This document shows positions 16,000-57,489 of a stretch of DNA of 64,000 bases, piece by piece. The notes under the pieces were generated by a model. That model had not been told where the DNA came from, did not search any database, and was given only the letters and a program-made list of their open reading frames with translations. Every line of letters starts with the position of its first letter. The stretch's first letter is position 1. A program made the translations under genes and the position numbers. Origin of the DNA: a candidate division FCPU426 bacterium (lineage in GTDB: Bacteria > Oederibacteriota > Muellerivitia > Muellerivitales > Muellerivitaceae); the NCBI GenBank assembly GCA_003152075.1, contig PLZG01000054.1:21067-85066 (forward strand). The letters run 5' to 3'.

Positions 16000-16134
16000 A
16001 TTACTCTCCCGAAATTTAAATAAACAACCACAGGCTTTTCAAATTGACCTGTACTAAATAATGTTTCTCAGGAGGCTATTATTCCATGAAATTTGAAGAA
16101 AATGGGGGCGATAAAGCCCATAAAAACATGGGTT

Positions 16135-16929: not shown

Positions 16930-17076
16930 GTATATGATGTTTTTGAAAGACGTTTTATTCCGAAAAAACCTAATTAAACTATTGGCACGGTCGAATTAAG
17001 TCTTTACCGCCCACATCCTAGTATGTTTTAATCAAGCCGACAAATTTTTTTAAAGAAAAATATTGGACATCAAACT

Positions 17077-17433: not shown

Positions 17434-17508
17434 CGGACAACCCATGTTTACCTTGAAAACAAAATCCACCTGGAAGGAGTTCACTAAAAGTTATTTTATG
17501 AACCCAAA

Positions 17509-17547
17509 ACCCTCGCCCCTTGCGGGAGAGGGTAGGGTGATGGGTGT
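17509..17547. repeat. family-A GC-rich hairpin repeat (AACCCTCGCCCCTTGCGGGAGAGGGTAGGGTGAGGGG)
   Basis: Near-identical copies at 27519, 30311 and 57611 (reverse), plus variants at 20766 and 43518. Lies in the 5' leader of the gene at 17630. Confidence 0.8.
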
Positions 17548-17629
17548 GGAAAAACCGATTGTTGCAACCCTCCCCCCAACACACTTCCCTCGAGGGAGAA
17601 ATTGTAAAGCTATTAAAAGCATTGACGAA

Positions 17630-18994
17630 ATGACCTTTAAAAAATTTTCCCAAAGTCTCGCCTTTTGCTCGCTACTTCTAGCGGCCCCTGCTGTCTTTGC
17701 CGCCACCGAATTAGTCCCCCCGAGCGCCCAACTGGCTTTTCCCCTTGAAAACCAGGGCGGCTCGGCACGGGCCAACGCCATGGGGTCGGCCTTCGTGGCC
17801 GTGGGTGGCGACGTGTCCGCGCTTTCGTGGAATCCGGCGGGCCTTGCCAGCCTCACTTCCGCCCAATTGGCCCTCCACCATAATTTTTACCTGCAGGATT
17901 TAACGCAGGACACGCTCCTTTTCGCGACTCCGCAGGGGGATTTTGGCAGTTGGGGCCTTTCGGCCAGTTACCTTGGTTACGGCAGCCTGCAGGGCCGGGA
18001 TTCCAACGGCGTGGTGACAGGCAGTTACAACGCGGGAAGATGGGGCGGTGAAATCGCCTGGGCTCATGTCCTATTCCAGGGTTTTGCTATTGGACTGGGG
18101 TTGAAGGGGAACCTGCTGGATTTATCGGGGGCGGATTACTCGAATATCGCGGGGGATGTGGGAGCCTTGTGGGACGTCACTTCCACCTTCCACGTAGGCG
18201 CTTCTTATGACAATTGGGGCACGGATATCAGCGGAAACATCGCCAATTCGGTCATCCGTTTTGGGGGAGCCTATGACTGGGCTGTTTCTTTCAACAACCA
18301 GGCCCTACTCGCCGGGAGCCTTTTCTTGGAGCCTTTCGGCGTCGCCCGATTGAACATAGGGGCGGAAGATGTGTTCAACTCTTTCCTGTCCCTGCGCGCG
18401 GGCTATGTGGCGGGCTTATCCTCAACACTTCTTCAGGGCTTGACCGGCTTGACGGCCGGGTTGGGTTTAAAGCTGCAGGATTTCAATTTGGATTACGCCT
18501 ACTCCCCCTTCGGCGACCTGGGAACTTCCCAAAGGGTGAGTCTCACTTACCATTTCGAGGGGGCGGCCCCCAAAACCACACCAGTTCCCGGTTCCTCCAC
18601 CAAAAGCACGCAGACAAAAGCCACACCGACTCCGGCCAAAGCCATCCCGGTCACCGTTTATGCCACCCCACCGCCCGGCCCCACGGCTACTCCCGCTCCC
18701 GCGGAGCCAAAGAAGGATGTGGAAAAATTGAGGCTTTTATTCAGTCTTCCGGAAAATCAAAATGATTCCGCTGGGACATCCGACCTGGATTGGGACCAGA
18801 AGGTCCAAGCCGACAAGGACGCCATCGATAAGGACGCGAAGAACCTTTCGGCCTGGTATGAATTGGCTATGCTTTATTACCAAAAGGGCAAAAAAGAAGA
18901 CGCCATCCAATGTTTTGAGCAGACCTTACGCTTGAAACCCGACAATGAAAAGTTGAGGAATTGGCTCAAAAAATATAAAGAACGGCAACAATAG
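17630..18994 (+). CDS. FadL/PorV-like outer-membrane beta-barrel with Pro/Thr linker and C-terminal TPR tail
   Basis: Start refined to MTFKKFSQSLAFCSLLLAAPAVFA, a signal peptide; the track ORF 17423.. runs through repeat A1. GGSARANAMGSAFVAVGGDVSALSWNPAGL hatch-like motif. Ends with a TPR-like WYELAMLYYQKGKKEDAIQCFEQTLRLKPDN. Confidence 0.65.
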   Translation: MTFKKFSQSLAFCSLLLAAPAVFAATELVPPSAQLAFPLENQGGSARANAMGSAFVAVGGDVSALSWNPAGLASLTSAQLALHHNFYLQDLTQDTLLFATPQGDFGSWGLSASYLGYGSLQGRDSNGVVTGSYNAGRWGGEIAWAHVLFQGFAIGLGLKGNLLDLSGADYSNIAGDVGALWDVTSTFHVGASYDNWGTDISGNIANSVIRFGGAYDWAVSFNNQALLAGSLFLEPFGVARLNIGAEDVFNSFLSLRAGYVAGLSSTLLQGLTGLTAGLGLKLQDFNLDYAYSPFGDLGTSQRVSLTYHFEGAAPKTTPVPGSSTKSTQTKATPTPAKAIPVTVYATPPPGPTATPAPAEPKKDVEKLRLLFSLPENQNDSAGTSDLDWDQKVQADKDAIDKDAKNLSAWYELAMLYYQKGKKEDAIQCFEQTLRLKPDNEKLRNWLKKYKERQQ

Positions 18995-19057
18995 TGCAAT
19001 TATTTCATAAAGTTTGGAATAACTGGGCGGTCCAAATCATTATTTAAGTGAGGGGCC

Positions 19058-19624
19058 TTGAGCGAAACGGAGCTGATCCAACAAGTTTTAGCGGGGGATG
19101 AGGGGGCGAAGACCCGTCTCTATGAGGAACACACCCATCGGTTGAAGCCGATTTGCGTACATTTCTTGGGCTACCAGGATTCGGACATCGATGACATCGT
19201 CCAACAAACTTTCCTGATCGCCTTCCAAAAGCTTCCTGAATTTGAACCTCGAAGCACCCTCTACACCTGGCTTGCCCATATTTGCGTGAACCTTTGTTAC
19301 GAAAGGATCCGTCGGCGGAAAAAATTCCTGGTGAGCCTTCAGGAGGATTTGGAACAAATGACGGCGTCCCTGGTGCACTCGCGGGAACATGACAAAGGCG
19401 TGAAGGACGAAGATGGCAGGAAAATGCAGCTTCTGGAGAAGTTGATCCAGACGATGAGCGAGAAATGCCGGAAAATCATCGAGCTCAGGGACAAGTCGGG
19501 CGAGAGTTACGCCGACATTGGTAAGGTAATGAAGATTCCCATTGGAACAGTGATGTCCCAATTGGCCCGGTGCCGGGAAACGTTGAAACAGATGGTGCAG
19601 AGCAGCCTGAAGGAAGGTTTGTAA
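19058..19624 (+). CDS. ECF-family RNA polymerase sigma factor (sigma-70 regions 2 and 4)
   Basis: TTG start. YQDSDIDDIVQQTFLIAFQKLPEF (region 2) and SYADIGKVMKIPIGTVMSQLARCRE (region 4). Its TAATG overlaps the next gene. Confidence 0.85.
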   Translation: MSETELIQQVLAGDEGAKTRLYEEHTHRLKPICVHFLGYQDSDIDDIVQQTFLIAFQKLPEFEPRSTLYTWLAHICVNLCYERIRRRKKFLVSLQEDLEQMTASLVHSREHDKGVKDEDGRKMQLLEKLIQTMSEKCRKIIELRDKSGESYADIGKVMKIPIGTVMSQLARCRETLKQMVQSSLKEGL

Positions 19625-20513: not shown

Positions 20514-20765
20514 GGGTTTTCTTGGGGTAAAAATATAAAGGCCCGGGGATTTGCCCCCGGGCCGCTATATGGTGCTTCTTAGATAACGCGCTGAATAAAG
20601 GTCTTTATACCGCCGGGAGTCTCTAGCGCATCCCGCGCTCATGTTTTCCCCGCTGACTAATAATGTTTTTCGGCGAAGGTTTATTCCAAAAATAATTTAA
20701 TTTTCGGGGAAATTTTAGGGTGGTTTTGAGCTCAAAATAAGGCAAGAACCGTAAATCAAAATAAT

Positions 20766-38139: not shown

Positions 38140-38808
38140 TTAAGGTTTGGGGGAACAGACATAAAGCCGGGCCGTGGCGAAGCGGTTGCCCCAGGGCAGG
38201 GTGGCCAGCTGGATATTGCCCCTCACTTCCTTCTCGACGGTAAAGCTTTTTTCCAGGAGCGCCCGGAACTGTCCCTCGGTCCAGCAATAGATGTGGGTGG
38301 GGTCCAACAAAAGGGTGCCGGGTTTTTTCAGGGCCGCCACGATTTGCAGGGGATGGTACATGTCGTCATAAACGAAAAAGATTTTACCCTTGGGCTTGAG
38401 CAGGAGGGGAAGGGTCTTGAACAGGAGTTTCCGGTCCCCATCGAAAAGGTGCTCGGCCACGTTCACGCAGGTGACGGCGTCGAACTTCCCGAACTTTTTC
38501 AAATCCGGGATGGCCTTGAAAAGGTGGAATTTCCGCTTGGGGTAAAGCTTGCGGGCCTGGGTGATGGCGCCCTTTTCCACGTCCGCTCCCTCGGCCTGGA
38601 GGAAATCCGTGATGTAACCCACGCCGCAGCCGAAATCCAATATCCTTTTCCGGGGGGAAGGCAGGTTGTCCTGGAGGGCCTTATAAATGCTCAGGACAGA
38701 CAGGTCCTTTTGCTCGATGAAGTGCTTGTAGTGCCAGTAGTAGCCTTTTTGCCGGAGGACGTAGGAAAAAATTTTTTTCCGGAAAGGGTAGAGAAGGCCG
38801 TGGTTCAT
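38140..38808 (-). CDS. class I SAM-dependent methyltransferase
   Basis: ILDFGCGVGYITDFL motif I. Start refined to MNHGLLYPF, directly after the stop of the upstream gene. Confidence 0.7.
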   Translation of the reverse strand: MNHGLLYPFRKKIFSYVLRQKGYYWHYKHFIEQKDLSVLSIYKALQDNLPSPRKRILDFGCGVGYITDFLQAEGADVEKGAITQARKLYPKRKFHLFKAIPDLKKFGKFDAVTCVNVAEHLFDGDRKLLFKTLPLLLKPKGKIFFVYDDMYHPLQIVAALKKPGTLLLDPTHIYCWTEGQFRALLEKSFTVEKEVRGNIQLATLPWGNRFATARLYVCSPKP

Positions 38809-39950
38809 CGGATGGGGAAGCCGTTTCCACCGTAAGGATTGTTGTCCAGTGGCGTAGGGGTCATGGTGGGCGGGGCGGGAGGTTCGGGGGCCTTCATGGG
38901 CTTGATGCGCACGATCTGGCTGTTTTGCAGGTCCGTCAGGTAAAGGCGGTTCTCGGCGTCGCAGGCGATGCCCCGGAAATGCGGGTTGTAGTTGGGGGTC
39001 ACTATGTCGTCCTTGGCGGACCATTGGCCGATGAATTCAAAGCGGTTGTTGAAAAACACGACTCGGCCCGTCGTGCCATCGGTCACGGCGATCATGCCGG
39101 ACTTGGCGATGACGATTCCACCCGGTTCCTTGAATTGGAAGGGGCCCTCGCCATACCACCCTTCCAGGGTGACGGGCACCCCTCCGCTATTTAAAACCTG
39201 AAAATGGAAATTGCCCGTGTCGGCGATCAGGGCCTGGTCGATATAGTTCAAGGTGAACCCCAGGGGCTGGTTCATAAAGGCGTTATTGGAGTTGGAAGTG
39301 GGATCCCCAAAGGCGCCCCAGCCGGAGAGGTACTCGCCCAAGCCGCTGAAAATTTGAATCCTCGAATTGCCCGAGTCTAGAACCCAAATTTTGTTGTAAT
39401 GGTCTTTCGCCACGGCCCGGGGAAGATTGAATTGACCCGGGCTGTTTCCTTGGGCGCCCCAGGTGGAAAGGACCAGGCCCTTCTCATCCAACACGACGAT
39501 CCGGTGGTTCTGGGTATCGGCCACGTAGGTTTTCTTGGAGGGAGCTACGAATACTCCGGCGGGGTGATTGAACTGGGGAGCGTCGCGCCAGTCGGCGCGG
39601 GTTCCGAAGGAACCCAGCACCGTGACGGGTTTGCCTTCGCTATCCCATACCACAATGCGGCTATTACCCGTGTCGGCGATCACCATTTTTCCGCTGGGGG
39701 CAATATCGATGCCTTCCGGCGCGTTGAGCTGGTCATTCCCAATGCCCTTGGAACCCCACATGGCGTCGAAGCTGTAAATCTTGGGGCCGGTATAGGGGAT
39801 GGGCGTGAAGGTGGCCGTGGCGGTGGGGGTATCGGTAAAGGTTTCAGTTGGGGTGGCCGTGGGGGTATGGTGTTTTTTCGCCCACAGGTTAGAGGGCAGG
39901 GAAGCTAAAAATAGAAAAAGAAGGATAAAGGTGATTCGGTGCGGGTTCAT
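38805..39950 (-). CDS. secreted NHL-repeat beta-propeller protein
   Basis: Signal peptide MNPHRITFILLFLFLASLPSNLWA, a TPT linker, and repeated ..IADTGNSRIVVWD.. NHL-like blades. Confidence 0.7.
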   Translation of the reverse strand: MNPHRITFILLFLFLASLPSNLWAKKHHTPTATPTETFTDTPTATATFTPIPYTGPKIYSFDAMWGSKGIGNDQLNAPEGIDIAPSGKMVIADTGNSRIVVWDSEGKPVTVLGSFGTRADWRDAPQFNHPAGVFVAPSKKTYVADTQNHRIVVLDEKGLVLSTWGAQGNSPGQFNLPRAVAKDHYNKIWVLDSGNSRIQIFSGLGEYLSGWGAFGDPTSNSNNAFMNQPLGFTLNYIDQALIADTGNFHFQVLNSGGVPVTLEGWYGEGPFQFKEPGGIVIAKSGMIAVTDGTTGRVVFFNNRFEFIGQWSAKDDIVTPNYNPHFRGIACDAENRLYLTDLQNSQIVRIKPMKAPEPPAPPTMTPTPLDNNPYGGNGFPIR

Positions 39951-40136
39951 TGAATAAATGCTATCACAAAAGCAATTATGAATTATGAATTTTAAATTTT
40001 GAATTGTGGTTATTTTCACCTTCGGTGAAAATTTCATTCATTCAAAATTCAACATTTTAAATTAAAAATTGGTGTTTTAAGCGCCCTTTTTCTCTTTTGA
40101 GAAAAAGGATTTCTTCGCCTTTTGAGGATGTGCGGC

Positions 40137-40640: not shown

Positions 40641-40767
40641 GGCTTCCTCCGGTTATGATTTTAAATGTCAGAGTTGTTCGTTAGGGCGTTGAAAAGGATG
40701 CAAGGTTAACGAAGGTGCCAAAAACTGTCAAGAATAAAGGTAATGAAGCCCACTAACCGAAACCTGA

Positions 40768-43951: not shown

Positions 43952-46900
43952 GTGAACAGCCGTATCTATCAAAATCCTATTGGTTTTTTATTCCGCCTCA
44001 TCCTCGTTTCCGGTTTGGGCTTTGTAATTACCGCCACGACCGCATCGGGCCAAATCACACTAACCAAATCGGTTAACGTGTCAAGCGCCTCACCCGGTGA
44101 CGCGGTCACTTACACCCTTTCCTATACCAACGCGAATGCCAACAGCACCTGCCCGGACAATTTCGAAGGTGACACGCTGGGGAATTTTCCCACGGGCTGG
44201 ACCCAATCCCAGGGGACTTGGTCGGTCGTCTCGGACAATGGGCCCACCTCGGCGGGAACCCAGGCCCTCCAGGGCGTGGCGGCGGCGAATAATTATCCCT
44301 ATCTCCTCAACAATTGCTCCACCCAGGTGGGGGACGGTTATATCCAAACCGACATGAAGATCGGCGCTGGCGGAACCCAAAACGGCGTTCTTCTTTTCCG
44401 TTTCAACGGCACAGGCACGGTGAACGGCTCGAATTACCAGGCCTTGATCGGGGTGGGCAACACCAACAACGTGTCGGAGGACTATTGGAACAACACCGCG
44501 GCCACTTTCAATACGGTCACCACGGGTAGCGCGGTGATCGCCGCGAACACCTGGTTCACCGCCAAATTCGAGGTTACGGGCTCGGGCCCGGTTACCCTAA
44601 AATTGTGGATCAACGGTACCCTGGCAGCCACAGGCACCACGGCTTTCGCCATTGGAACGGGGCAGGGTGGCCTGCAATCCAATAACAGCAGCACGGTCAG
44701 GTTCGACAACGTTTCCATCGTCAAGTATCCGCCCGCTTACAACGTGACCGTGACCGATACTCTGCCGGCGGGGTTGGCCTATTCCTCCTCCAGCGGTTCC
44801 CCAGCCGTGGCGGGGCAAAAGGTGGTTTGGACCTTGGGAAACCTTGTCGGCGGGGCCGCCGGAGCCCTGACCCTGGTGGGTACGATCAATAATTGCGGCG
44901 TCAACCTGATCAACACGGCTGAGGCGGATAGCGGGACACCCCAATTGGGCGTGAATTCCAACCCGGTAACAACCACCGTGATTGGCTGCACCCCGACGTC
45001 GACGAATAGTCCCACCTTCACCCTTACTCCCACCAAGACCGCCACGCCGACCCCGACCCCGACCCTGACGTCGACAAATTCCCCGACGTTAACCCCCACA
45101 AATACACCCTCAAACAGCCCGACGAGCACACCGACCAACAGTTACACGAACACTCCGACCGTTACCCCGACGAATTCGGCTACCAATACGTCATCCCCTA
45201 CGGGGACGAACACTCCTACCGGCACTCCAACGAAAACACCCACCAATACACCTAGCAACACTCCAACCAATACTTCCTCAAATTCGCCGACCAACAGTCC
45301 AACCACGACGCCGACCAATAGCCCAACGACAACGCCGAGCAATACACCGACCAATAGTCCTACGACCACGCCGTCCAACACCCCCACGAATAGCCCAACG
45401 ACCACACCTACCCAATCGCCCACGACGAGCCCCACCAATAGTCCAACCGCGACACCCTCTAATTCTCCGACCAATAGCCCCACCATTACCTCCACCAACT
45501 CCCCCACGGCCAGCCCCACCAATTCCCCCACCGTGACCCCTTCAAACACCCCGACCAATACGCCAACTTTGACGCCGACTAATACGTCAACGGCTTCACC
45601 GTCCAATACTCCTACGGGCACTCCGACTTTCACGCCGACGAATACGCCTTCTTATACCCCTACCAACAGCCCGACGGTGACGCCGACCACAACGCCCAGC
45701 AATACGCCGACCAATAGCCCCACGGCCACCCCTTCAAGCACACCCACGAATAGCACAACCACCACGCCTACCCATTCGCCAACGCCCAGCCCCACCAATA
45801 CCCCGACGTCGACACCCTCGAACACGCCGACCGAAAGCCCGACCATCACACCAACGTCTACCCCAACCAATAGCCCAACATTAACCCCGCCCAACACACC
45901 CACGCCAACCCCCACTATTACTCCTAGCTACTCACCTACTAATAGCCCGACGATCACTCCTTCCAACACCCCCACGAATAGCGCAACAACGACGCCTACC
46001 AATTCGCCCACGGCCAGCCCCACCCATACCCTGACCATGACTCCTTCGAACACGCCGACGGAAAGTCCGACAACTTCACCTACGTCTACCCCAACTAATA
46101 CTCCGACCTTGACGCCTCCTAATACGTCGTCCCCTACGGGGACGAGTACTCCTTCGGGCACACCCACCCCAACATCCACGAACAGCCCAAGCAATACGCC
46201 TACGAACACCCTCACCCATTCACCTACCCAAACCCCGACGCTTTCGCCGACCAATACTCCTTCCAATTCTCCGACCATAACTCCGACCGACACGCCCACC
46301 ACCACGACAAGTAATACTCATACTAATACCCCAACGAATACCCCCATTTCCACACCGACTAATAGCCCCACGACCACACCACCAAGCACTCCCACGAATA
46401 GCTCGACGACCACACCTACCAATTCGCCTACGGCTACCTCCACGAATAGTCAGACCGGGACACCCTCTAATACTCCCACCCATAGTCCGACGACTACTCC
46501 CACGAATTCACCTACCCAAACTTCGACAATTACGGCAACCAATACTCCCACCCATTCCCCAACCACTACGACGAGCAATACCCATACGAATACCCCGACG
46601 AATAGCCCCACTTCCACGCCGACTAACAGTCCCATCAACACGCCACCCTTGACCCCTACCCATACGTCGACGGCTTCGCCATCGAGTACTCCTACGGCCA
46701 GTCTGACCAGTTCGCCTACCTCAACGTCGACAAACTCGCCTACACTTTCACCTTCCAGCAGCCCAACGAATACCTCGGGCACCAGCACTTTCACTTACAC
46801 CAATACATCCTCTTACACCAACACTCCTCCTTTCACCCCCACGCCAACCTACACCGATACCCCGACCTATAGTTTTACTGCCACTCCCAGCCCGACCAAC

Positions 46901-47821
46901 ACATTACCGCCAGGAACCAATACCTATACGCCGGGGGGCACCAGCACCTTTACCTATAGTTACACTCCGACTTTCAGTTACACGCCGACTTATACCTACA
47001 CCCCCACTCTGACGCCGACCCTCACCCCGACTTATACCAACACCCTGCCTCCGGGGACCAATACCTACACCCCTGTTAATACGAACACCATTACTCCCTC
47101 CTACACTTCAACGCCGACCTACACTCGCACCATGACTTATACCCAGACCATTACCTTTAGCCCCACGCCCTCGGTAACGATAACTCCCGCCGTCACCGTT
47201 ATCGCCTCACCGGCCTGCGACCAGGAAGCCGTGAAAATTTTCGACGAGCGAGGGGAACTGGTCAAAACCCTTTGCGGTACCATGACCGCCCCCCAATCCG
47301 TGACCTTCACCTTCACGATGTCCCATTTCACGCCCAGTTCAACGGGGCAGGGCGGGACCCTCACCTTCTATGTAAACGGCCAGGCCATCGCCACTTGGGA
47401 CGCCACGGACAAGAATGGAAATAGGGTGCCAAACAGTTTCTACCACGTTGTTCTTGAACAAAGGGTTTTGGATGGGTCCCTGGCCCGACGGGAAAGGGAC
47501 ATCTTCATTTCAACCACCACCCAAACATCCGCCGTCCAACTTTTGGCTTATCCGAATATCGCCCACACCGGCGGTTCCATCAGCCTATCCGCTGCATTCG
47601 CGGGGAATCCGGCGGATAGCCGGAGCAACATTAAGATTTACGCAGTCAGCGGGGAACTGGTGAAAACAATGGAGTTGAACAGCGGCCAGGCTTCCTGGGA
47701 TTTGACCAACAGCCAGGGCTCGCTTGTTTCTTCCGGCGTGTACCTTATATTCCTGGATGGGGTGGACGTGAATACCGGTAATTCCGCCTCGAAGGTCATC
47801 AAAGTGGTTGTTCTGCGGTAA
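43952..47821 (+). CDS. giant secreted mucin-like protein: DUF11-like domains split by a LamG-like insert, ~730-aa Thr/Pro/Ser/Asn repeat region, two C-terminal FlgD-Ig/CTD-like domains
   Basis: 1289 aa. N-terminus [26 protein letters not shown] (DUF11-like). TPTNSPT-type repeats span about 45000..47200. C-terminal ...[28 protein letters not shown]. Confidence 0.8.
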
Positions 47822-47919
47822 AAAGGCAGGCAATCCGTAACCATAATTTTCATTGTGTTTCCTTATTTCCGTCAAACCTCCTAAATTCCCCTTGTAATAC
47901 AATGGTTTTAAAGTCTCAT

Positions 47920-47948
47920 GGAATAAAATCCCGGGTTCTCCCACTAAC
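47920..47948 (+). promoter_or_regulatory. putative ECF-type promoter GGAATAAAA-N8-TCTCCCACTAAC upstream of the sigma/anti-sigma operon
   Basis: The same motif with identical spacing is found at 54902..54930. It lies about 30 nt before the ATG at 47980. Confidence 0.45.
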
Positions 47949-47979
47949 AGTTGGAGCTAAATGATAGCCGGGTAAACCG

Positions 47980-48570
47980 ATGGGTCATGGAGGGCCTTTG
48001 GAAGACCGGCAACTGGTTGAAAAACTGTTGGCTGGGGACGCGGAAGCGGAGCGCGTTTTTTTCCATGCCCACCGGGACCGCCTTTACAAGGCCTGCGTCT
48101 ATCTCCTGGGTTACCAGGATCCGGACGCCGAGGATGTGACACAAGAAGCTTTTATCGTGGCCTTACGAAAACTCCCGGAATTTGAGTTCCGTTCCAGCCT
48201 TTTCACATGGCTTTACCGCATTTGCGTCAATCTTTGTTACGAACGAATAGATAAGCGTTGGAGGCTTGTGTCCCATTTGCAAGAGGAACTGGAGGACTTG
48301 GCAGGCCCCCTTTCGGGAGACCGACAGGAAAGGGAAGAAGAAAACGCCCTTAGGAATAAAAAATTGGAATTGTTGGATGGCCAAAAGAAATTGCTGGGTG
48401 CCCCCTGCCGGGACCTGTTGGATTTGAGGGATGTCCAAGGGAAAAGTTACGCCGAGGTTTCAAAATTATTAAAGGTTCCGATGGGAACGGTGATGTCCCG
48501 TTTAGCCCGATGTCGGGAATCCTTGAAGCAACTGGTTATGCAGGCTTTGGAAGGCAAAAAGAATGGCTGA
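47980..48570 (+). CDS. ECF-family sigma factor (paralog of 19058)
   Basis: YQDPDAEDVTQEAFIVALRKLPEF and SYAEVSKLLKVPMGTVMSRLARCRE. Confidence 0.85.
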   Translation: MGHGGPLEDRQLVEKLLAGDAEAERVFFHAHRDRLYKACVYLLGYQDPDAEDVTQEAFIVALRKLPEFEFRSSLFTWLYRICVNLCYERIDKRWRLVSHLQEELEDLAGPLSGDRQEREEENALRNKKLELLDGQKKLLGAPCRDLLDLRDVQGKSYAEVSKLLKVPMGTVMSRLARCRESLKQLVMQALEGKKNG

Positions 48571-49360
48571 TTTAATCGAAAAATTCTTCGAGAAAGACCT
48601 CGCCGAGGCCGAAAGGCAAGCTCTGCGTGAGGAGCTATTATCCAAAGATGGGGCCGCCGAAAAATTCGTGGAAAAAGCCGAGGCTTCCTATAAGGAATTC
48701 GGGTTGCCCGAACCGCGTTGGACAGGGCCGGATGTTTTCAGGCAATCCGCCGAACCGGGGCTTACACAATGGCTTTGGCTCTTTGTGCTCCTCGCTGGTG
48801 CCATTGGGGTTTCAATGTGGTGGTATTTCGCTAAAGGTAATCCAACCAACGAAAACTCGTTATCTTCCTTTGGCTCGGAACAAGCCGCGCCAATTGTTTC
48901 CCTTTCCCCCAAGCCCGTGAAAAAGAAACATGTCCCGGTTGCGAGTCAGCCTATAACTGTGGCTCAAATGCTTCCGGTGACAAAACTCAAAGCAAACGTT
49001 GAAGCGCCTCTAACGATCCAGCCTAGTTTGCCTGTCCAGGTTCAAACCACCTCCACTTTACCTTTGCTCGTCAGTCCCAAGTTTACACCGGTTAACGTGG
49101 ATCAAAATCCCAACAAGCCTTTTTCGAGCTTATCGGTGGTATTGCATCGGTCCACGCCGGGTTTCCTGAACGTACGATTGTTGGATTCGGCGGGGAGGGA
49201 GTTGGTGCCGCTTTATCGGGGTAATCTGCCTCCGGGCACCTGGGCTTTCGAGTGGAACGGTTTGTTAAAAGATGGCCGCTTAGCCCCGCCCGGCAAGTAC
49301 GGGATTGAAGTAAGGGCCGGCTCTTGGGCGCAGGTTAAAGAGGTTTTGATTCCAAAATAA
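48563..49360 (+). CDS. anti-sigma-like membrane protein with C-terminal FlgD-Ig/CTD-like domain (paralog of 19624)
   Basis: MADLIEKFFEKDLAEAERQAL.., TM segment, linker, then NVRLLDSAGRELVPLYRGNLPPGTWAFEWNG..GKYGIEVRAG. ATGgcTGA overlap with the sigma gene. Confidence 0.7.
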   Translation: MADLIEKFFEKDLAEAERQALREELLSKDGAAEKFVEKAEASYKEFGLPEPRWTGPDVFRQSAEPGLTQWLWLFVLLAGAIGVSMWWYFAKGNPTNENSLSSFGSEQAAPIVSLSPKPVKKKHVPVASQPITVAQMLPVTKLKANVEAPLTIQPSLPVQVQTTSTLPLLVSPKFTPVNVDQNPNKPFSSLSVVLHRSTPGFLNVRLLDSAGRELVPLYRGNLPPGTWAFEWNGLLKDGRLAPPGKYGIEVRAGSWAQVKEVLIPK

Positions 49361-49412
49361 TTATTGGAGTGTATTGGGCATTTAACCATTTATATGGCGG
49401 AGGAGAATAGGT

Positions 49413-50696
49413 ATGAAAAAGAAAAATATTTTTATCCGGTTCGCTGGTTGCCTTCTGTTCGCGATATTTTTCCAGGCCTGCAGTAAAAATTTTAGTTTGT
49501 CACCCAACGCCCCATTGGGTGCGCCGGCGGATACTTTTACGCCAACCGGCACCGTGGGAACAATGTTCCTTACTTCCACTGTTCCCACGGCCACCAATAG
49601 TCAAACGCCTGTAATATCGCTCACTTGCACTTTAACGCCGAGCAGCCCGGTTTATTCCCCTACCCCGCAAATCACCTCCACTTCAACAGCCACTTTTACC
49701 ACTACCTCAACACTGACATTTACACCAGTTTCGACTCCCACCTTTACGCCCACTTACGGGCATTACAGCTGGGCCAAGGCGGCCGCTTCTTCCCCTATGG
49801 GAGCCAGGATGTTCGCGGGGAACCTGGTTTATAACGGAAAAATGTGGATTGTTGCCGGCGGAAGCCCTTGTGTAGTGGAAGGTTGGTTTAAGTCCGATGT
49901 CTGGTCCTCAACGGAGGGAGCTTCCTGGACCCGAGCCACTGGCACGGCCGCCTTCGGCGTCCGGGAAGCCGCAGGTTGCGTTGTGTTCAACAACAAAATG
50001 TGGCTTATTGGCGGTGACAATGGATACAGCTGTTTTAATGACGTTTGGTCCTCAACGGACGGCGCCAATTGGACCTCCGTTTTAAGCAACGCGCCCTTTT
50101 CGGCCAGGAGCAGTTTCGGTTGCGTGGTTTTCAACAATAAAATTTGGGTCATCGGCGGGGATCAAGTCGATGGACAAAATCCACAGGCTGATATTTGGTG
50201 TTCCTCGGACGGGGTCAATTGGAACTTGGCGGGGAACCTTCCCGATTCCCGGGGGGAATTTGGCTGTGTGGTTTACAACGGTTCTATTTGGATCATCGCG
50301 GGGCATGACTACGGTTATCTTCTCAACGACGTTTGGTCTTCCGCTGACGGCATCAATTGGAACGAGATCACCGCTGGGGCGCCCTTTGGAGACAGGACCT
50401 GGGCGGCAACGACGGTTTTCAACGGATCCATTTGGGTGGTCGGCGGGGCGAACAGCAACGCCTGGAACTATATCTCCAGCACCTACACCGATGCCTGGTC
50501 CTCTTACGACGGGGTCAACTGGACCCAACCTCCCACCTCGACGCCCTTTTATCCCCGCTTCGGCGCGGAAAGCCTGGTGTATAACAACGAACTTTGGATG
50601 ATCGGGGGGGCGTGGTTCGCCAACCCAAGCCAGGTTTGGAACGGTGTGGGCGTGTCGGGGGCCCTTTACTTGAAAGACATCTGGCATACACAATAA
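49413..50696 (+). CDS. lipoprotein with Thr/Pro linker and 6 Kelch-like beta-propeller repeats
   Basis: Lipobox ..FFQACS. Repeats of DVWSS.DG.NWT......F..R...GCVVFNNK.W.IGGD. Confidence 0.6.
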   Translation: MKKKNIFIRFAGCLLFAIFFQACSKNFSLSPNAPLGAPADTFTPTGTVGTMFLTSTVPTATNSQTPVISLTCTLTPSSPVYSPTPQITSTSTATFTTTSTLTFTPVSTPTFTPTYGHYSWAKAAASSPMGARMFAGNLVYNGKMWIVAGGSPCVVEGWFKSDVWSSTEGASWTRATGTAAFGVREAAGCVVFNNKMWLIGGDNGYSCFNDVWSSTDGANWTSVLSNAPFSARSSFGCVVFNNKIWVIGGDQVDGQNPQADIWCSSDGVNWNLAGNLPDSRGEFGCVVYNGSIWIIAGHDYGYLLNDVWSSADGINWNEITAGAPFGDRTWAATTVFNGSIWVVGGANSNAWNYISSTYTDAWSSYDGVNWTQPPTSTPFYPRFGAESLVYNNELWMIGGAWFANPSQVWNGVGVSGALYLKDIWHTQ

Positions 50697-50746
50697 ATCA
50701 GCCCGGGAATTATTTTGAAGAGCAATGAATTTCAACCAATCTCATC

Positions 50747-53461
50747 GTGGACAAAGGTTTTGACATGAAAAAAATTGAAACTTTTTTCCTCAAAACCCCA
50801 GTTATTGGAACCATTACTCTTATGGGTTTAATTTTTTTGCAGTTGCTTGGTATAGAAATTTTCAAAAATTGGTTTAAGCCCTATCCTATTTTAAAGACGC
50901 AGTTGATTTCTCCCAATTCTGTGGCTGCCATGAAACGGGAATCATCCTACGGCCAACTTCCGCTTTGTTTTGAGCCCAACCAAGGTCAAACCGATCCACA
51001 AGTCAAATTTATTGCCCGAGGCAGTGGCTATAACCTTTTCTTAACTTCCGAAGAGACGGTTCTGGTTTTAAACCAACCGAATAAGGTTTCTTCGGACAAG
51101 TTGAAATTGTTTTGGCATTCCAAGGCCCATTCCATCCAGATGCAACCCCAAAACTCTACTGTTTTGAGAATGAAACTAGTCGGTTCTAATTCCCGCCCGA
51201 CTATGGAAGGTTTGGAAAAACTATCAGGTATCAGCAACTACTTCATCGGAAACGACTCGGCAAAGTGGCGTACTAATGTTCCCCAATACAAGAAGGTGGC
51301 GATGAAGAATGTTTATCCGGGAATCGATATGGTTTATTACGGCAACCAAAGGCATTTGGAATATGACTTCGTGGTAGCCCCGGGGGTAGACACGAAGGTG
51401 ATAAGACTGGCTTGGAATGGGCCTAAAGGGGCCAAAGTTGACACTAAAGGCAATTTGGTTTTTAAAACCAAAAATGGCCAAATTGTGTTCAAGGAACCGA
51501 TAATTTATCAAGTAAAAGACGGGGAACGAAAGATAATCCAGGGTCGATACGCCATGGCAGGGAATCATCAAGTTGGTTTCGAAGTGCGGGATTACGATTC
51601 CTCCCAACCTTTGGTTATTGATCCTCAATTGGACTATTCCACCTATTTGGGCGGGAGCGGAGAAAACTATGGTTTTAAAATTGCAGTGGACACAAATGGT
51701 GATGCGTATGTGACGGGATACACAAACTCCACTAACTTCCCCACGACGACAGGAACCTATCAGAATATTTTTGGTGGAACCTATGATGTCTTTGTGACCA
51801 AGTTGAATTCAATGGGTACGAGTTTAGTGTATTCCACATATTTGGGAGGAAGTAGTGAGGACTATGGCGAGGGTATCGCAGTAGACACAAGTGGTAATGT
51901 TTATATTACCGGGTGGGGCAATTCTACAAATTTTCCAACGACCTCCGGGGCTTATCAAACTACCTATGGTGGGGGGCCTTATACCACATTAATCACGAAA
52001 TTGAATTCAACCGGCACAGGTCTGGTTTATTCCACCTATCTAGGTGGAAGTGGCGAAAACGAAGGACACGATATTACTGTTGATTTATCTGGAAACGCCT
52101 ACATCACGGGCATTGCCTCTACTAATTTTTTAACAACGGTTGGAGCTTATCAAACCACTTATGGGGGCGGACTTTGGGATGCTTTTGTCGTGAAATTAAA
52201 TTCGTCAGGAACTGGCTTGTTTTATTCCACTTATCTGGGTGGAAATAGCGAAGACGAGGCATTTGGAATCGCCGTTGATGTATCTGGATACGCCTATGTG
52301 ACCGGAACTTGCGCCGCCACTTTCCCAACAACAGCTGGGGCTTATCAAACTGTGATAGGTGGATCTTATAACGCGTTTGTTGTGAAATTAAATTTGACAG
52401 GAACTGGCTTGGTTTTTTCCACTTATTTGGGAGGAATTAATCAAGACAATGGTTATGGAATTGCGGTGGACGCCAGTGGAAACGCTTTTGTAACTGGATA
52501 CACCTTTTCCCCGAACTTTCCCACCACCGCAGGTGCCTATCAGACGGTTTTTAGTGGTGTCGAAGATGCCTTTGTGGCCAAGCTGAACTCGACAGGGACC
52601 GGTTTAATCTATTCCACGTTTTTGGGAGGTAGCAGCCCAGGCAATGGTTATGGTATCGCGCTGGACACCAGTGGAAACGCCTATGTGACAGGGCAGACCA
52701 GCTCTACGAATTTTCCGATTACAAGTGGAGCTTATCAAACTACTAATAATGGGGGCATTAAGGCTTTTTTAACTAAATTAAATACAACGGGTTCAGCTTT
52801 GATTTATTCAACCTTCTTTGGTGGGAACGTGACTGATTATGGTAATGGAATCGCGGTTGATTCAACTGGATCCGCTTACATCACTGGATATACTGATTCC
52901 TCCAATTTTCCTACAACAGCTGGCGCTTATCAGACTAATTTGAATGGTTCATATGATGCTTTTGTAGCAAAGTTCGACGCTTCCGACTTTTACACGCCGA
53001 CCACTACTCCAACCAACACTTTAACCCATACCCCGACCAATACTCTAACGCCAACCATTACAAATACATCAACTCCTACAAGTACTTTGACCAATACTCC
53101 AACAATAACTTTCACCCCAACAATAACCCTGACTCCCACTTCTACACCCACCCCCAGCTATTTAGGCCCAAACCCACCAACACCCGGAACCTCCTTTGTT
53201 TATCCCTCGCCGGCCACGGGTGGGACGGTCAACATCGCTTATGACATGCAGGAAAGCGGTACGGTTCAAATTTTAGTTTGGAACGAGAGTGCGGAACTGG
53301 TGGCGGATATGAGTCGAAACCAATGGATCGGGACCCAAAAGATGAGCATTAACATCCAAGGTTGGGCAAGGGGTGTGTATTTTTACAAGGTCGTTTTTCA
53401 CTATGCCTCCGGCAAGGTCGAAAGACTCACCCCCGGTAAATTCCTGATTGGCTGGTGGTAG
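50747..53461 (+). CDS. secreted SBBP (beta-propeller repeat) protein with Thr/Pro linker and C-terminal FlgD-Ig/CTD-like domain
   Basis: At least 10 repeats of YSTYLGGS..D.G.GIAVD.SGNAYVTG.T.S.NFPTT.GAYQ. C-terminal YPSPATGGTVNIAYDM..GTVQILVWNESAELV...GVYFYKVVF...KFLIGWW. Confidence 0.75.
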   Translation: MDKGFDMKKIETFFLKTPVIGTITLMGLIFLQLLGIEIFKNWFKPYPILKTQLISPNSVAAMKRESSYGQLPLCFEPNQGQTDPQVKFIARGSGYNLFLTSEETVLVLNQPNKVSSDKLKLFWHSKAHSIQMQPQNSTVLRMKLVGSNSRPTMEGLEKLSGISNYFIGNDSAKWRTNVPQYKKVAMKNVYPGIDMVYYGNQRHLEYDFVVAPGVDTKVIRLAWNGPKGAKVDTKGNLVFKTKNGQIVFKEPIIYQVKDGERKIIQGRYAMAGNHQVGFEVRDYDSSQPLVIDPQLDYSTYLGGSGENYGFKIAVDTNGDAYVTGYTNSTNFPTTTGTYQNIFGGTYDVFVTKLNSMGTSLVYSTYLGGSSEDYGEGIAVDTSGNVYITGWGNSTNFPTTSGAYQTTYGGGPYTTLITKLNSTGTGLVYSTYLGGSGENEGHDITVDLSGNAYITGIASTNFLTTVGAYQTTYGGGLWDAFVVKLNSSGTGLFYSTYLGGNSEDEAFGIAVDVSGYAYVTGTCAATFPTTAGAYQTVIGGSYNAFVVKLNLTGTGLVFSTYLGGINQDNGYGIAVDASGNAFVTGYTFSPNFPTTAGAYQTVFSGVEDAFVAKLNSTGTGLIYSTFLGGSSPGNGYGIALDTSGNAYVTGQTSSTNFPITSGAYQTTNNGGIKAFLTKLNTTGSALIYSTFFGGNVTDYGNGIAVDSTGSAYITGYTDSSNFPTTAGAYQTNLNGSYDAFVAKFDASDFYTPTTTPTNTLTHTPTNTLTPTITNTSTPTSTLTNTPTITFTPTITLTPTSTPTPSYLGPNPPTPGTSFVYPSPATGGTVNIAYDMQESGTVQILVWNESAELVADMSRNQWIGTQKMSINIQGWARGVYFYKVVFHYASGKVERLTPGKFLIGWW

Positions 53462-53530
53462 GAATAACATCAATTTTAAATTTTGAGTTTTGAATTAACG
53501 GATTAAACCGAGAGGCAAAAGCAAAGAACA

Positions 53531-54835
53531 ATGATGAATCGAAATTCGTCTGAATTTATGGCAATCACAAATTTGTTGGTTCTGACGACGGTTGGCTTGC
53601 TTCACGCCCAACCCTCGTCTTTGTTACAGCCGTTGGATGACACGGGCGGGTCGGCCAGGGCCGCCGCGATGGGGTCCGCTTTTGTGGCGGTGGCGGATGA
53701 TTCCTCGGCATTGTTATGGAATCCGGCGGGATTGGGAAAACTTCAAACGGGCCAACTGGCTCTTCATCACAATTCCTGGTTGGTGGATACCCTTCAAGAA
53801 TCCTTTACCGTTGGTATACCCATGGGAGATGCCGGTGGCATTGGAGTCATGGCGACTTTCCTGGATTACGGTACTTTCCAGGGACGGGATCCCAATGGAG
53901 CGATTACTCCCAATTACAACGCCAACAAATGGGGTTTCATGCTGGGGTGGGGCAAGGAATGGGCCCCTGGGTTTTCCGCTGGTTTGGCATTGCGAGGGGG
54001 TTTTCAATCGGCCTTGGGCAACTCCTACAGTTTGTGGAGCGGCGATGTGGGCTTTTTGTATAGCCCAGACCCCCAATTGCGGTTTGGCGCGGCCCTCGTT
54101 AACTTTGGGGGGAACCAATCCGGGGGATGGGTGGCTTCCGCCATTCGGGCGGGAGTTTCCTATAAACCAGAATGGAAAGGCCCCCATGGTCTTTTGTTTT
54201 CGTTGGATGGCACAGTGGAACCCCAAGGGGTAAATCGCGTGGGGTTGGGAGTCGAATACTCGTTCCAATCTAAATATTTCCTTCGGGCGGGGTACCAGGT
54301 TTACGAACAGAACAACGAAATCCAAGGGCTTCAAGGACTAACTGCCGGGGCTGGTATCCAATGGAATGGTTTTGAGTTGGACTATGCCTTCCTACCTTAC
54401 GGGGATTTGGGAACTTCTCATCGTGTTAGTTTGAGTTATATGTTTCCCTCTTCAAAAGCTAATTCCCAACCTGCCGTGGGTTCTTCAACAGCTTCCCCCA
54501 GCCTGAGTGGCCCTCCGATTACTTTTAAGCCGGAGCCGGGGTCGGGGACTAACAAGAATACTTTGACCCTCCAATTTGACATACCGCCCGATTTTGTCGC
54601 CCAAGGCCAAACCTTAGAAGCCCAGGGGCACCGGGTGGAAGCCATGCGGCTTTATCAAGAAGCCATTATTAAGGACTCTCAAGACTTGATGGCATGGGAG
54701 GCTTTGGGAATGAGCTATTACCAATTGGGACAGAAAGTTTACGCAATTCAGTGTTTTGAGCAGGTTTTGAAACTTCGGCCTGAGGATAAAGCCTTTTCCA
54801 GTTGGTTTGAGAAATATAAGGCATCCACCCCCTGA
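53531..54835 (+). CDS. FadL/PorV-like outer-membrane beta-barrel with C-terminal TPR tail (paralog of 17630)
   Basis: GGSARAAAMGSAFVAVADDSSALLWNPAGL, and C-terminal YYQLGQKVYAIQCFEQVLKLRPED. Confidence 0.65.
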   Translation: MMNRNSSEFMAITNLLVLTTVGLLHAQPSSLLQPLDDTGGSARAAAMGSAFVAVADDSSALLWNPAGLGKLQTGQLALHHNSWLVDTLQESFTVGIPMGDAGGIGVMATFLDYGTFQGRDPNGAITPNYNANKWGFMLGWGKEWAPGFSAGLALRGGFQSALGNSYSLWSGDVGFLYSPDPQLRFGAALVNFGGNQSGGWVASAIRAGVSYKPEWKGPHGLLFSLDGTVEPQGVNRVGLGVEYSFQSKYFLRAGYQVYEQNNEIQGLQGLTAGAGIQWNGFELDYAFLPYGDLGTSHRVSLSYMFPSSKANSQPAVGSSTASPSLSGPPITFKPEPGSGTNKNTLTLQFDIPPDFVAQGQTLEAQGHRVEAMRLYQEAIIKDSQDLMAWEALGMSYYQLGQKVYAIQCFEQVLKLRPEDKAFSSWFEKYKASTP

Positions 54836-54901
54836 GAAAAGTCGGCCTTCTGATCCATTCGCTAACCCCTTAAAACCTTATTTTTAGCCCTCATTTTCAA
54901 G

Positions 54902-54930
54902 GGAATAAAACCGAGCTTTCTCCCACTAAC
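54902..54930 (+). promoter_or_regulatory. putative ECF-type promoter GGAATAAAA-N8-TCTCCCACTAAC upstream of the NHL lipoprotein gene
   Basis: 21 of 29 positions identical to 47920..47948 with identical spacing; about 40 nt before the ATG at 54971. Confidence 0.45.
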
Positions 54931-54970: not shown

Positions 54971-56236
54971 ATGAAATTTCGGGGTTTTTCAAGATTCTTT
55001 TTGACGATGACTTTTGCGGGCATGATCATTAATGCTTGTAGTACAGGTTTCACTTTGCCCCCTTTGGCCCCTACGCCCACCGCGACCCCTATTTCATCAA
55101 CACCTTCTTCCACCCCAACGGTTACGGGATTAAGCGCGGCCACGAACACCCCGACTAAAAATCTAACCCTTACACCAACCATAACCCTTACTTTCGCGCC
55201 AACAAATACCGTGACGGCTACCTCCACCAGCACCCCGACTTCAACTTCCTCATGCAACAACGGCGGATTGGTGACGACCTGGGCAGGGTCGGGGGCAACT
55301 GGGTCCGCCAATGGAACTGGAACCGCCGCGTCGTTCAATTTGGTCTATGGAGTCGCGGTCGATGCCTCCGGAAACGTTTATGTCGCGGAAGCGGGTAACG
55401 AGGATATCCGCAAAATTAATCCCGGGGCAGTAGTGACGACGCTGGCCGGGTCAGCTGGGGTTACGGGGTCCGCCAATGGAACCGGAACAGCCGCGTCGTT
55501 TAATGGCCCGTCCGCCGTCGCGGTCGATGCCTTTGGGAACGTTTACGTCGCGGATGTATGGAACGAACTCATCCGCAAAATCACACCGGGGGGATTGGTG
55601 TCGACGCTGGCGGGGTCGGGGGCCATCGGGTCCGCCAATGGAACCGGAAACGCCGCGTCGTTCTATTATCCCCTCGGAGTCGCGGTCGATGCCTCCGGGA
55701 ACGTTTACGTGGGGGATGCCGCCAACAACTTGGTCCGTAAAATTACCCCCGGGGGAGTGGTGACGACCCTGGCGGGGTCAGGGGCGATTGGGTCGGCGAA
55801 CGGTAACGGCACTTCCGCGTCCTTCTACGGACCCGCAGGAGTCGCGGTCGACTCATCGGGAAATGTTTATGTCGCGGACCGCAACAACAACATGATCCGT
55901 AAAATTACTCCCGGCGGGGTAGTCACCACCTTCGCGGGGTCAACCTCCTCAGGGTCGTCCGACGGGACGGGAACCGCCGCGTCGTTCAGTAATCCTCATG
56001 ATGTTGCTGTCGATTCATCGGGGAATGTTTACGTCGCGGATACTTACAACAACCTGATTCGTAAAATTACCCCTGGGGGAGTGGTGACGACCTTGGCGGG
56101 AGGAGGGGTTTGTTGTTACACCGACGGAACCGGAACTGCCGCGTCGTTCAGTTTGCCCTATTCGGTCGCGGTTGATTCCTTCTGTAGTGTCTACGTTGCG
56201 GATACGGGTAACCACGTTATTCGGAAAATTCAATGA
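54971..56236 (+). CDS. lipoprotein with Thr/Pro linker and 6 NHL repeats
   Basis: Lipobox ..IINACS. Repeats of GSANGTGTAASF..P.GVAVD.SGNVYVAD..NN.IRKITPGGVVTTLAG. Confidence 0.7.
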   Translation: MKFRGFSRFFLTMTFAGMIINACSTGFTLPPLAPTPTATPISSTPSSTPTVTGLSAATNTPTKNLTLTPTITLTFAPTNTVTATSTSTPTSTSSCNNGGLVTTWAGSGATGSANGTGTAASFNLVYGVAVDASGNVYVAEAGNEDIRKINPGAVVTTLAGSAGVTGSANGTGTAASFNGPSAVAVDAFGNVYVADVWNELIRKITPGGLVSTLAGSGAIGSANGTGNAASFYYPLGVAVDASGNVYVGDAANNLVRKITPGGVVTTLAGSGAIGSANGNGTSASFYGPAGVAVDSSGNVYVADRNNNMIRKITPGGVVTTFAGSTSSGSSDGTGTAASFSNPHDVAVDSSGNVYVADTYNNLIRKITPGGVVTTLAGGGVCCYTDGTGTAASFSLPYSVAVDSFCSVYVADTGNHVIRKIQ

Positions 56237-56445: not shown

Positions 56446-57489
56446 ATGGAAATACTCCTCCTTCGGCTCGACCGCATCGGCGATTTTATGCTCGGTGTTC
56501 CCGCTTTCCGGGCTTTGCGGAAAGCCTATCCCGACGACCGTATCACGGTCGTGGTTCCCTCCGACGTGGCCGAACTGGCCAAGGCCTGCCCCTACTTTGA
56601 CGAAGTTTACCTTTACGACGCCATGTGGCTTTTACCGGGCCACTCGCCCCTGGACCGGTGGAAATCGGCTTGGAAGCTCATCAAATTTCTTCGCTCCAAG
56701 AAAGCGGACATGGTTCTCGACTTCCGCTACCAGAGCCGGTTGGATCCCCTCGTGACCGGTCTTTCCGGCGGCTCCAAGCGGGTGGGGTTCGACCTAGGCT
56801 GGGTGAGCCAATGCCTAACTCAAAAAGTTTCCAAGCCCGCCCCGGAACTTCACCAAGTGGACCGCAACCTGCATCTTTTGCAGGCGATCGGGATCACCGC
56901 ATCCAGCCGCCAATTGGAAATGTGGTTCGACGAACACGATAGGAAAACCGCTGAGAACCACTTGCCCACCCAGGAACTTTTGCCAGGTATGCCCCGTTTG
57001 GCCGTTCATATCGGTGCCGCGACGCCTTCCAAAAGGTGGCGGGGAGAAAGTTTCGAGGTGCTCATCCATGAGCTTCATGCCTTAACCCAAGCCGACATTC
57101 TGGTCCTGGGCGGGGAAAAGGATTTGGATTTCGCCCATGAGGTGTTGGACGGCCTGGAATGCCCGGTGATCAACCTAGTGGGGAAGCTGAGCCTGCGACA
57201 AATGGCAGCAGTATTGAAGCATTGCCAGGTCTTTATCGGTTGTGATTCGGGGGCCACCCACGTGGCGGCGGCGGTTGGTGTGCCGGTGGTGAGCCTTTTT
57301 TCGGCGGCCAATGAGGTGGAGGTTTGGAAACCCTGGGCCCAGAAGGTGAAGGTTCTCACGAAACATCCGGCTTGTTCCCCTTGCCATAGTTTTGAATGCA
57401 CCCGCACCGACGGTTATTTCTGCATGGCGGAAATCAAAGTGGAAGATGTAGTGGCGGAGGTGAAGACTTTTTTGGAAGAGCACCACTGA
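56446..57489 (+). CDS. GT9-family glycosyltransferase (LPS heptosyltransferase-like)
   Basis: ILLLRLDRIGDFMLGVPAFRALRKAYP N-terminal signature of the heptosyltransferase family. Confidence 0.75.
   Translation: MEILLLRLDRIGDFMLGVPAFRALRKAYPDDRITVVVPSDVAELAKACPYFDEVYLYDAMWLLPGHSPLDRWKSAWKLIKFLRSKKADMVLDFRYQSRLDPLVTGLSGGSKRVGFDLGWVSQCLTQKVSKPAPELHQVDRNLHLLQAIGITASSRQLEMWFDEHDRKTAENHLPTQELLPGMPRLAVHIGAATPSKRWRGESFEVLIHELHALTQADILVLGGEKDLDFAHEVLDGLECPVINLVGKLSLRQMAAVLKHCQVFIGCDSGATHVAAAVGVPVVSLFSAANEVEVWKPWAQKVKVLTKHPACSPCHSFECTRTDGYFCMAEIKVEDVVAEVKTFLEEHH

Follow-up and report, generated by a model that had tools for sequence, protein, structure and literature searches.

Predicted ECF sigma promoters upstream of a sigma operon and a propeller lipoprotein gene in a candidate division FCPU426 bacterium

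The paralogous extracytoplasmic function (ECF) sigma factors W, X and M of Bacillus subtilis recognize overlapping promoters, and it is the -10 region that decides which of them is the reader. ECF sigma factors usually regulate their own synthesis and are encoded beside their regulators and targets (PMC7826278). The promoters of Escherichia coli sigma-E are built from GGAACTTTT and (T/C)GGTCAAAA, with a strong preference for 16 nucleotides between GGAACTT and TCAAA and a discriminator of 5 or 6 nucleotides (PMC1312014). PorV of Porphyromonas gingivalis is bound by the sorting domain of PorA, a protein that also affects the level of the sigma factor SigP (PMC7712824). The subject here is a 64,000-nucleotide stretch of contig PLZG01000054.1 (positions 21,067 to 85,066 of the forward strand; assembly GCA_003152075.1) from a candidate division FCPU426 bacterium, referred to throughout as the window. 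An earlier note, made from its letters without database searches, pointed to a motif repeated upstream of an ECF sigma gene, here called sigma-2, and of a gene for an NHL-repeat lipoprotein. The two motifs are quite likely promoters read by RNA polymerase with sigma-2, which would be autoregulated and command a small local regulon. The mechanism is ordinary, textbook ECF autoregulation.

The motif pair in the window

The composite motif GGAATAAAA-N8-TCTCCCACTAAC occurs in just two exact copies in the window, GGAATAAAATCCCGGGTTCTCCCACTAAC at 47920-47948 (+) and GGAATAAAACCGAGCTTTCTCCCACTAAC at 54902-54930 (+), where 0 are expected by chance. The blocks and the 8-nucleotide gap between them are the same in both copies, as the earlier note had described, and the exact pair is unique in the window. 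A search allowing up to three mismatches on either strand returns the same two sites alone; 100 dinucleotide-preserving shuffles return none. Scans of the window for GGAATAA-N17-CTAA with one mismatch, for all CACTA[AG]Y and for all GGAATAA disclose no further credible copy. The earlier note had named scattered occurrence inside coding regions as grounds for giving up the idea; these relaxed scans found no coding-region site with the right geometry.

Each copy is intergenic and co-directional with the gene that follows. The first ends 31 nucleotides before the ATG at 47980 of sigma-2 and the second 40 nucleotides before the ATG at 54971 of the NHL lipoprotein gene, distances that agree with the 30-40 nucleotides reported before, but the likelier sigma-2 start, a TTG at 47998, places the first copy 49 nucleotides away. 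Read as the sigma-2-dependent promoter of the sigma-2 operon, copy 1 would comprise a -35 element GGAATAAA (47920-47927) and a -10 element CACTAAC (47942-47948). In copy 2, 5' of the NHL lipoprotein gene, the corresponding elements are at 54902-54909 and 54924-54930. Transcription would start ~5-6 nucleotides past the -10 element, near 47953 and 54935, respectively. A literature search for GGAATAAA in connection with ECF sigma factors found nothing relevant.

Two copies standing alone in a window might also have arisen by chance, or might be the remnant of a duplication or an RNA leader without promoter function; the identical 12-mer, in particular, could stem from a recent local duplication of intergenic DNA. 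Any such origin is so improbable as to be nearly negligible. Chance predicts no copies at all, the copies have dissimilar flanks, a block-gap-block layout is unlike an RNA helix, and an Rfam scan of the window gave no match.

Conservation and drift across orthologous sigma loci

Homologues of sigma-2 at 53-74% identity number in the hundreds and come from metagenomes or genomes. Nine orthologous loci carry the comparison, with sigma factors 72% (L083), 68% (L086), 65% (L120), 64% (L087), 63% (L092), 61% (L121), 59% (L089), 58% (L090) and 50% (L003) identical to sigma-2. Directly upstream of the sigma gene, every one of the nine has GGAATAA(A/T)-N14/15-CAC(T/A)nn (GACTAA in L003), from a few to ~60 nucleotides ahead of the called start. 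The sequence around the motif is not alignable, and the leader downstream of it is not conserved; that the motif holds its position at 50-72% sigma identity while the leader does not is a further argument against a chance pair and against an RNA leader. The motif has 0 sites in ~0.4 Mb of unrelated ECF sigma loci (L004-L082). These controls come from a sigma-alignment search of metagenome contigs in which, among the 80 matches listed, 79 were generic ECF factors (28-39% identity) and L003 (50%) alone could be used. Presence at all the orthologous loci and absence from the unrelated ones support the earlier suggestion of an autoregulated ECF promoter. The contigs that encode an identical sigma factor (L001, L002, L122) are 100% identical to the window and, consequently, provide no population variation.

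Behind the sigma gene comes a gene for a membrane protein, the partner of the sigma factor, at eight of the nine sigma-2 orthologue loci and at 10 of the 11 orthologous loci fetched, the exception being L003, a short locus where the partner gene was not checked. Genes for propeller or giant secreted proteins and a PorV-like/TPR gene usually come next. Further copies of the motif, one or two at each locus, lie 5' of neighbouring genes in 8/9 loci, that is, in all except the short L003. In L083 they precede a divergent NHL gene (site 9753, minus strand) and a 140-residue gene that is followed by a DUF7948/SBBP gene; in L086 the extra site is 5' of a PQQ propeller gene and in L121 of an SBBP gene. 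PorV-like/TPR genes lie behind extra sites in L087 and L090, and giant or unknown proteins are encoded behind those of L120, L092, L089 and L090, with L089 site 11601 preceding an NHL/SBBP giant gene. The giant proteins measure 1,266 to 2,446 residues. These copies favour the proposal of a small regulon that connects the sigma factor to Thr/Pro-linker propeller cargo, although 'cargo' is a loose term for the NHL product, because it is a predicted lipoprotein with a Thr/Pro linker and no C-terminal sorting domain.

The tabulated sites amount to 22 in ~0.2 Mb. They are intergenic and co-directional with the next gene, bar one, located slightly within a gene whose start is probably mis-called; a pattern match that was not tabulated, at L087 14414, is likewise intergenic and co-directional. 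One match was set aside: L083 15234 is antisense, inside a gene, and looks like noise.

When the 22 sites are compared, GGAATAA is invariant, the A after it nearly so, CAC nearly invariant and the T that follows frequent; the invariance of GGAATAA and CAC at the non-sigma sites of other loci is partly by construction, because those sites were picked by pattern. The two positions after CACT vary between genomes and are often alike within one genome. Both window sites and both L086 sites have CACTAAC, and L083 has CACTAAC twice and CACTAAT once; CACTAGT occurs twice in L121, CACAGGT twice in L120, and CACTAG and CACTGG in L090, while CACTTAT/CACTCTT, with a spacer one base longer, are the forms in L089 and L092. 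The -10 element, then, covaries with the genome that carries it, as is expected from co-evolution of a sigma factor with its promoters.

The comparison also redefines the downstream block. The earlier note had taken a block containing TCTCCC as conserved; TCTCCC is not kept across orthologues, which have TCCGCC, TCCGAC, CGTCCC or CAAAAG in its place. The functional -10 element would be CACTAAC, with TCTCCC a weakly conserved part of the spacer, in which orthologues keep a T some six bases ahead of CAC and a bias towards C. That both window copies have TCTCCC could be due to a preference, specific to the lineage, in the bases ahead of the -10 element, or to a shared origin.

A 6-bp palindrome occupies the same position in 5/22 promoter spacers: CCCGGG in window site 1 (47930-47935) and the L087 9913 site, ACCGGT and ACGCGT in the L083 11417 and 9753 sites, and ACGCGT in the L003 1463 site. 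These palindromes may be due to chance in a GC-rich spacer, or may constitute a second binding site. They would suit a motif that served as the operator of another DNA-binding regulator and not as a sigma site, as would the fact that the window copies share more (TTCTCC) than the cross-species consensus needs. Such an operator is nevertheless very improbable. The two conserved blocks are asymmetric; most sites, window site 2 among them, have no palindrome; the -35 block matches the ECF consensus GGAAC/T, and spacing is held at 15-16 nucleotides. Moreover, a copy of the motif accompanies the sigma gene at each orthologous locus, and the loci have no other conserved regulator nearby besides sigma and partner.

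Searches farther afield added no sites. A scan of a collection of genome contigs that holds neither the window's genome nor relatives with this exact -10 element, with the pattern GGAATAAA-N8-TTC-N3-CACTAAY, gave 23 single matches in unrelated taxa; this is approximately the chance number, and the matches are not plausible promoters. A homologue search with the NHL protein returned generic double-propeller NHL proteins from many phyla, among which no orthologues could be distinguished.

The presumed sigma-2 operon and a proposed parallel sigma-1 circuit

The sigma-2 gene (47980..48570, +) encodes 196 residues if it starts at the ATG. The TTG at 47998, which yields 190 residues, is the more likely start, because GGAGGG stands at 47989-47994, a GGAG-TTG arrangement recurs in orthologues and most homologues are ~190 residues long. 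The protein matches Sigma70_r2 (49.5 bits) and Sigma70_r4_2 (31.9 bits), has no region 3 or 1.1, and belongs to the ECF (group IV) sigma-70 family (TIGR02937, 82.6 bits against a cut-off of 42.9). Its closest solved structures are 8z6g and 6in7 (both ~1e-19), SigW (1e-17) and E. coli sigma-E (7e-17), and it has full-length matches to the structures of SigW, sigma-E, SigH and CnrH.

The start of the next gene (48563..49360, +) overlaps the stop of sigma-2 by 8 nucleotides. Its 265-residue product begins with ~55 residues of helices, has one membrane helix (~residues 65-90) and, after a long linker, ends in a FlgD_ig domain, matched at 26.2 bits, slightly below the 27-bit cut-off. An AlphaFold model of this partner, made from a two-sequence alignment, has a mean predicted local distance difference test score (pLDDT) of 42, and its secondary structure alone was used. 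The partner is presumably an anti-sigma factor.

Three genes follow on the same strand. A Kelch beta-propeller lipoprotein with a Thr/Pro linker (49413..50696, +) is separated from the partner gene by a 52-nucleotide gap without motif and is probably co-transcribed with it. Next comes a DUF7948 and SBBP beta-propeller protein (50747..53461, +), with a Por_Secre_tail C-terminal sorting domain (32.2 bits against a cut-off of 27); its L083 and L121 orthologues likewise stand behind a promoter of the type of copy 1. The last gene of the presumed operon (53531..54835, +) encodes a PorV/PorQ-family outer-membrane protein fused to C-terminal TPR repeats. It scores 135.6 bits against PorV_fam, and a second such protein of the window scores 113.9 (cut-off 90); both are below the PorV, PorQ and PorV2 equivalog cut-offs. 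The gaps before the three downstream genes are 50-70 nucleotides, with no motif and no convincing terminator, and copy 1 probably drives all five genes: sigma-2, partner, Kelch, SBBP and PorV-like/TPR. Behind copy 2, the NHL-repeat beta-propeller lipoprotein (54971..56236, +) has a signal peptide, Cys23 and a Thr/Pro linker; a family-9 glycosyltransferase is encoded at 56446-57489.

A weaker variant of the motif had been proposed before the second PorV-like gene, at ~53461. At 53461, GGAATAAC shares bases with the SBBP stop codon, and neither type of -10 element lies at the right distance from it. It is probably not a promoter, and was not counted as one, because the -10 element is missing and because, in L083 and L121, the equivalent PorV-like/TPR gene directly abuts the preceding cargo gene. 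Also rejected was AGAATAAA...CACTAAC at ~40730-40757 (+), ~225 nucleotides upstream of a LemA gene; its spacer is 2 nucleotides short and it is probably not functional. The gene for a second NHL-repeat protein (38805-40037, -) has no motif copy nearby in the window-wide scans.

The gene that precedes copy 1 (43952-47821) encodes a 1,289-residue protein with a C-terminal FlgD_ig domain. A strong negative GC skew (-0.30 to -0.35) extends over window positions 44000-48000, across this gene. Many long opposite-strand open reading frames in 44000-48000 that are called as genes in other assemblies of this DNA (L001, L122) are probably artefacts of biased composition.

A paralogous sigma factor, sigma-1, is encoded at 19058-19624. 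It is 44% identical to sigma-2, and its FlgD_ig partner (to 20382) is 32% identical to the partner of sigma-2; upstream are another PorV-family/TPR gene (17423-18994) and a gene for a 118-residue sorting-domain protein. The pattern GGAATAA-N15-CAT(T/C)AT has 4 sites in the window against 0.01 expected, all of them intergenic and around sigma-1. The predicted sigma-1-class promoters are located at 19016..19043 (+), 5' of sigma-1 itself and with the form GGAATAA-N15-CATTAT; at 16934..16961 (-), 5' of a gene for a 264-residue LamG-like lipoprotein (16929-16135); at 16058..16085 (-), 5' of a gene for a 499-residue Thr/Pro-linker lipoprotein (15999-14500); and at 20660..20687 (-), 5' of a ~120-nucleotide unit that ends in an intrinsic terminator. 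The other weak variant of the earlier note, placed before the first sigma gene at ~19039, corresponds to a real GGAATAAC site, but one that starts at 19016 and belongs to the sigma-1 class. The sigma-1 orthologue of L116 (69% identical) has CAAATCATTAT before its gene and another CATTAT site ahead of a divergently oriented gene, and that of L118 (57%) has GGAATAT with CACTAT at two sites. Because the sigma-1 sites form a class of their own, conserved in L116, the window would appear to hold two parallel ECF circuits with the same -35 element and different -10 elements. The region-4 recognition helix is nearly identical in sigma-1 and sigma-2 (GTVMSRLARCRE vs GTVMSQLARCRE), and the loop that precedes the conserved TWL motif of region 2 differs. 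A common helix and a divergent loop fit, as far as the protein sequences go, with a shared -35 and a differing -10.

The same likeness furnishes the main rival to reading of the pair by sigma-2, namely, that the two promoters are read mainly or also by sigma-1, or by another ECF sigma factor, in a cascade or a shared regulon. Common to both classes are GGAATAA and a nearly invariant helix to recognize it, and the distant L118 orthologue of sigma-1 uses CACTAT, an intermediate form. The location of the sites tells against it: CACTAA-type sites cluster only round sigma-2 and its orthologues, and CATTAT-type sites only round sigma-1 and the orthologue 69% identical to it. The end of the spacer nearest the -10 element differs systematically as well, being C-rich in the one class and A-rich in the other. 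Reading by sigma-1 or another ECF factor is accordingly judged unlikely.

Assignment of the promoter pair to an autoregulated sigma-2 regulon nevertheless has several points to be set against it, apart from the pattern-based choice of non-sigma sites at the other loci. The two -10 types differ at two positions only (CACTAA vs CATTAT) and in spacer composition. The identity of TCTCCC in both window copies goes beyond the cross-species consensus. The view of the regulon covers 64 kb of this genome. Domain-family and PDB searches found no anti-sigma domain family and no PDB match for the partner, whose putative role as anti-sigma factor is deduced from synteny, gene overlap and topology.

The ~120-nucleotide unit behind the fourth sigma-1-class site (~20530-20687, -) is convergent with the anti-sigma-1 gene, whose 3' end it faces. 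It contains a 25-codon open reading frame (ATG at 20641) and a perfect, strong intrinsic terminator, GGCCCGGGG-gcaaat-CCCCGGGCC with a T run. It is a candidate for an ECF-dependent small RNA or a 25-residue micropeptide; it has no Rfam match, and its fold z-score is -2.35. The 118-residue protein (17077-17433, +) has nothing besides a signal peptide and, at its C terminus, a sorting-type domain that matches the tail of the SBBP protein (50747-53461) at 45% identity (E = 2e-26). In L116 and L118, equivalent genes of 120 to 128 codons stand ahead of those for the PorV-like/TPR protein and the sigma factor.

GC-rich hairpin repeats of the form CTCTCCC-(4 nt)-GGGGAGAGG have 9 matches in the window, counting both strands, against 0.11 expected (17511, 20766, 27522, 30314, 43520, 57555, 57625). 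A similar GC-rich hairpin is present in L092. One of the repeats falls within the N-terminal extension that a TTG start call gives to the PorV/TPR gene 17423-18994; this gene, therefore, probably starts further downstream. Between window positions 30000 and 32000, G+C content drops to 0.39, compared with ~0.52 elsewhere in the window.

Proposed mechanism and comparison with known systems

In the mechanism that we infer, domain 4 of sigma-2 would read the -35 element GGAATAAA and domain 2 the -10 element CACTAAC. Copy 1 would provide autoregulation of sigma-2, and copy 2 would subject the NHL propeller lipoprotein to the same regulation. The membrane partner, with its FlgD_ig domain presumably in the periplasm, would keep sigma-2 inactive until an envelope signal frees it, and its release would set off a positive-feedback burst of envelope proteins. 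A more elaborate version makes of the entire module (sorting-domain protein or cargo, PorV/PorQ-like-TPR protein, ECF sigma factor and FlgD_ig partner) an undescribed trans-envelope signalling device: the Ig domain of the partner would be a decoy sorting signal engaged by a PorV-like shuttle, and the sigma factor would be freed by the load or state of a type-IX-like sorting process, tuning shuttle and cargo through GGAATAAA-N14-CACTAAC promoters. This is speculative, and we would think it rather doubtful; it recalls the link between PorA, PorV and SigP in P. gingivalis.

Even in its ordinary version, the analysis proposes a concrete promoter code, a -35 GGAATAAA with a lineage-drifting -10, for an uncharacterised ECF family in an uncultured lineage, and a first regulon for the family of sigma-2, composed of beta-propeller lipoproteins, sorting-domain proteins and PorV-like/TPR proteins. 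The two side-by-side paralogous systems that differ in the -10 element would be a natural pair for the study of promoter insulation or the design of orthogonal switches. The most intriguing aspect is that PorV-like sorting genes appear to be tied to ECF signalling in a lineage other than the well-studied Bacteroidota.

Among described systems, E. coli sigma-E and its autoregulated rpoE-rseABC operon are alike in autoregulation, in a co-transcribed membrane anti-sigma factor (putative here) and in envelope-protein targets (PMC1312014). The promoters have the same geometry, with GGAATAA, 16 nucleotides and ACTAA in the window, and sigma-E structures are among the closest PDB matches of sigma-2 (1or7, 7e-17; 6jbq, 1e-16). 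Sigma-E also drives small RNAs; the sigma-1 class includes a candidate small RNA. The differences are equally definite: the -35 element is GGAACTT there and GGAATAAA here, where the -10 element is CACTAAC; the partner has no RseA-like domain and has, instead, a C-terminal FlgD_ig domain; and the sigma-E targets are the machinery of outer-membrane-protein folding, whereas beta-propeller lipoproteins and PorV-like/TPR proteins stand behind the promoters here. With 80.7 bits against the RpoE equivalog TIGR02939 (cut-off 236.15), sigma-2 is not an RpoE orthologue. Since the geometry equals that of sigma-E and the protein passes only the general ECF model, what the locus suggests is sigma-E-type promoter function without RpoE orthology.

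The likeness to sigma-W, sigma-X and sigma-M of B. subtilis is of another kind: sigma-1 and sigma-2 share the -35 GGAATAA and differ in the -10 element (CACTAAC vs CATTATT). Here, specificity is deduced from the location of the sites, and the lineage and the regulons differ. From the PorA-PorV-SigP system of P. gingivalis the present loci differ in lacking the PorX/PorY two-component system, in a sigma factor that has its own membrane partner, in the fusion of the PorV-like protein to TPR repeats and in a host that is not a known member of the Bacteroidota. What the two have in common is an ECF sigma factor linked to PorV-family proteins and proteins with C-terminal sorting domains; each of the sigma loci in the window has its PorV/PorQ-family gene.

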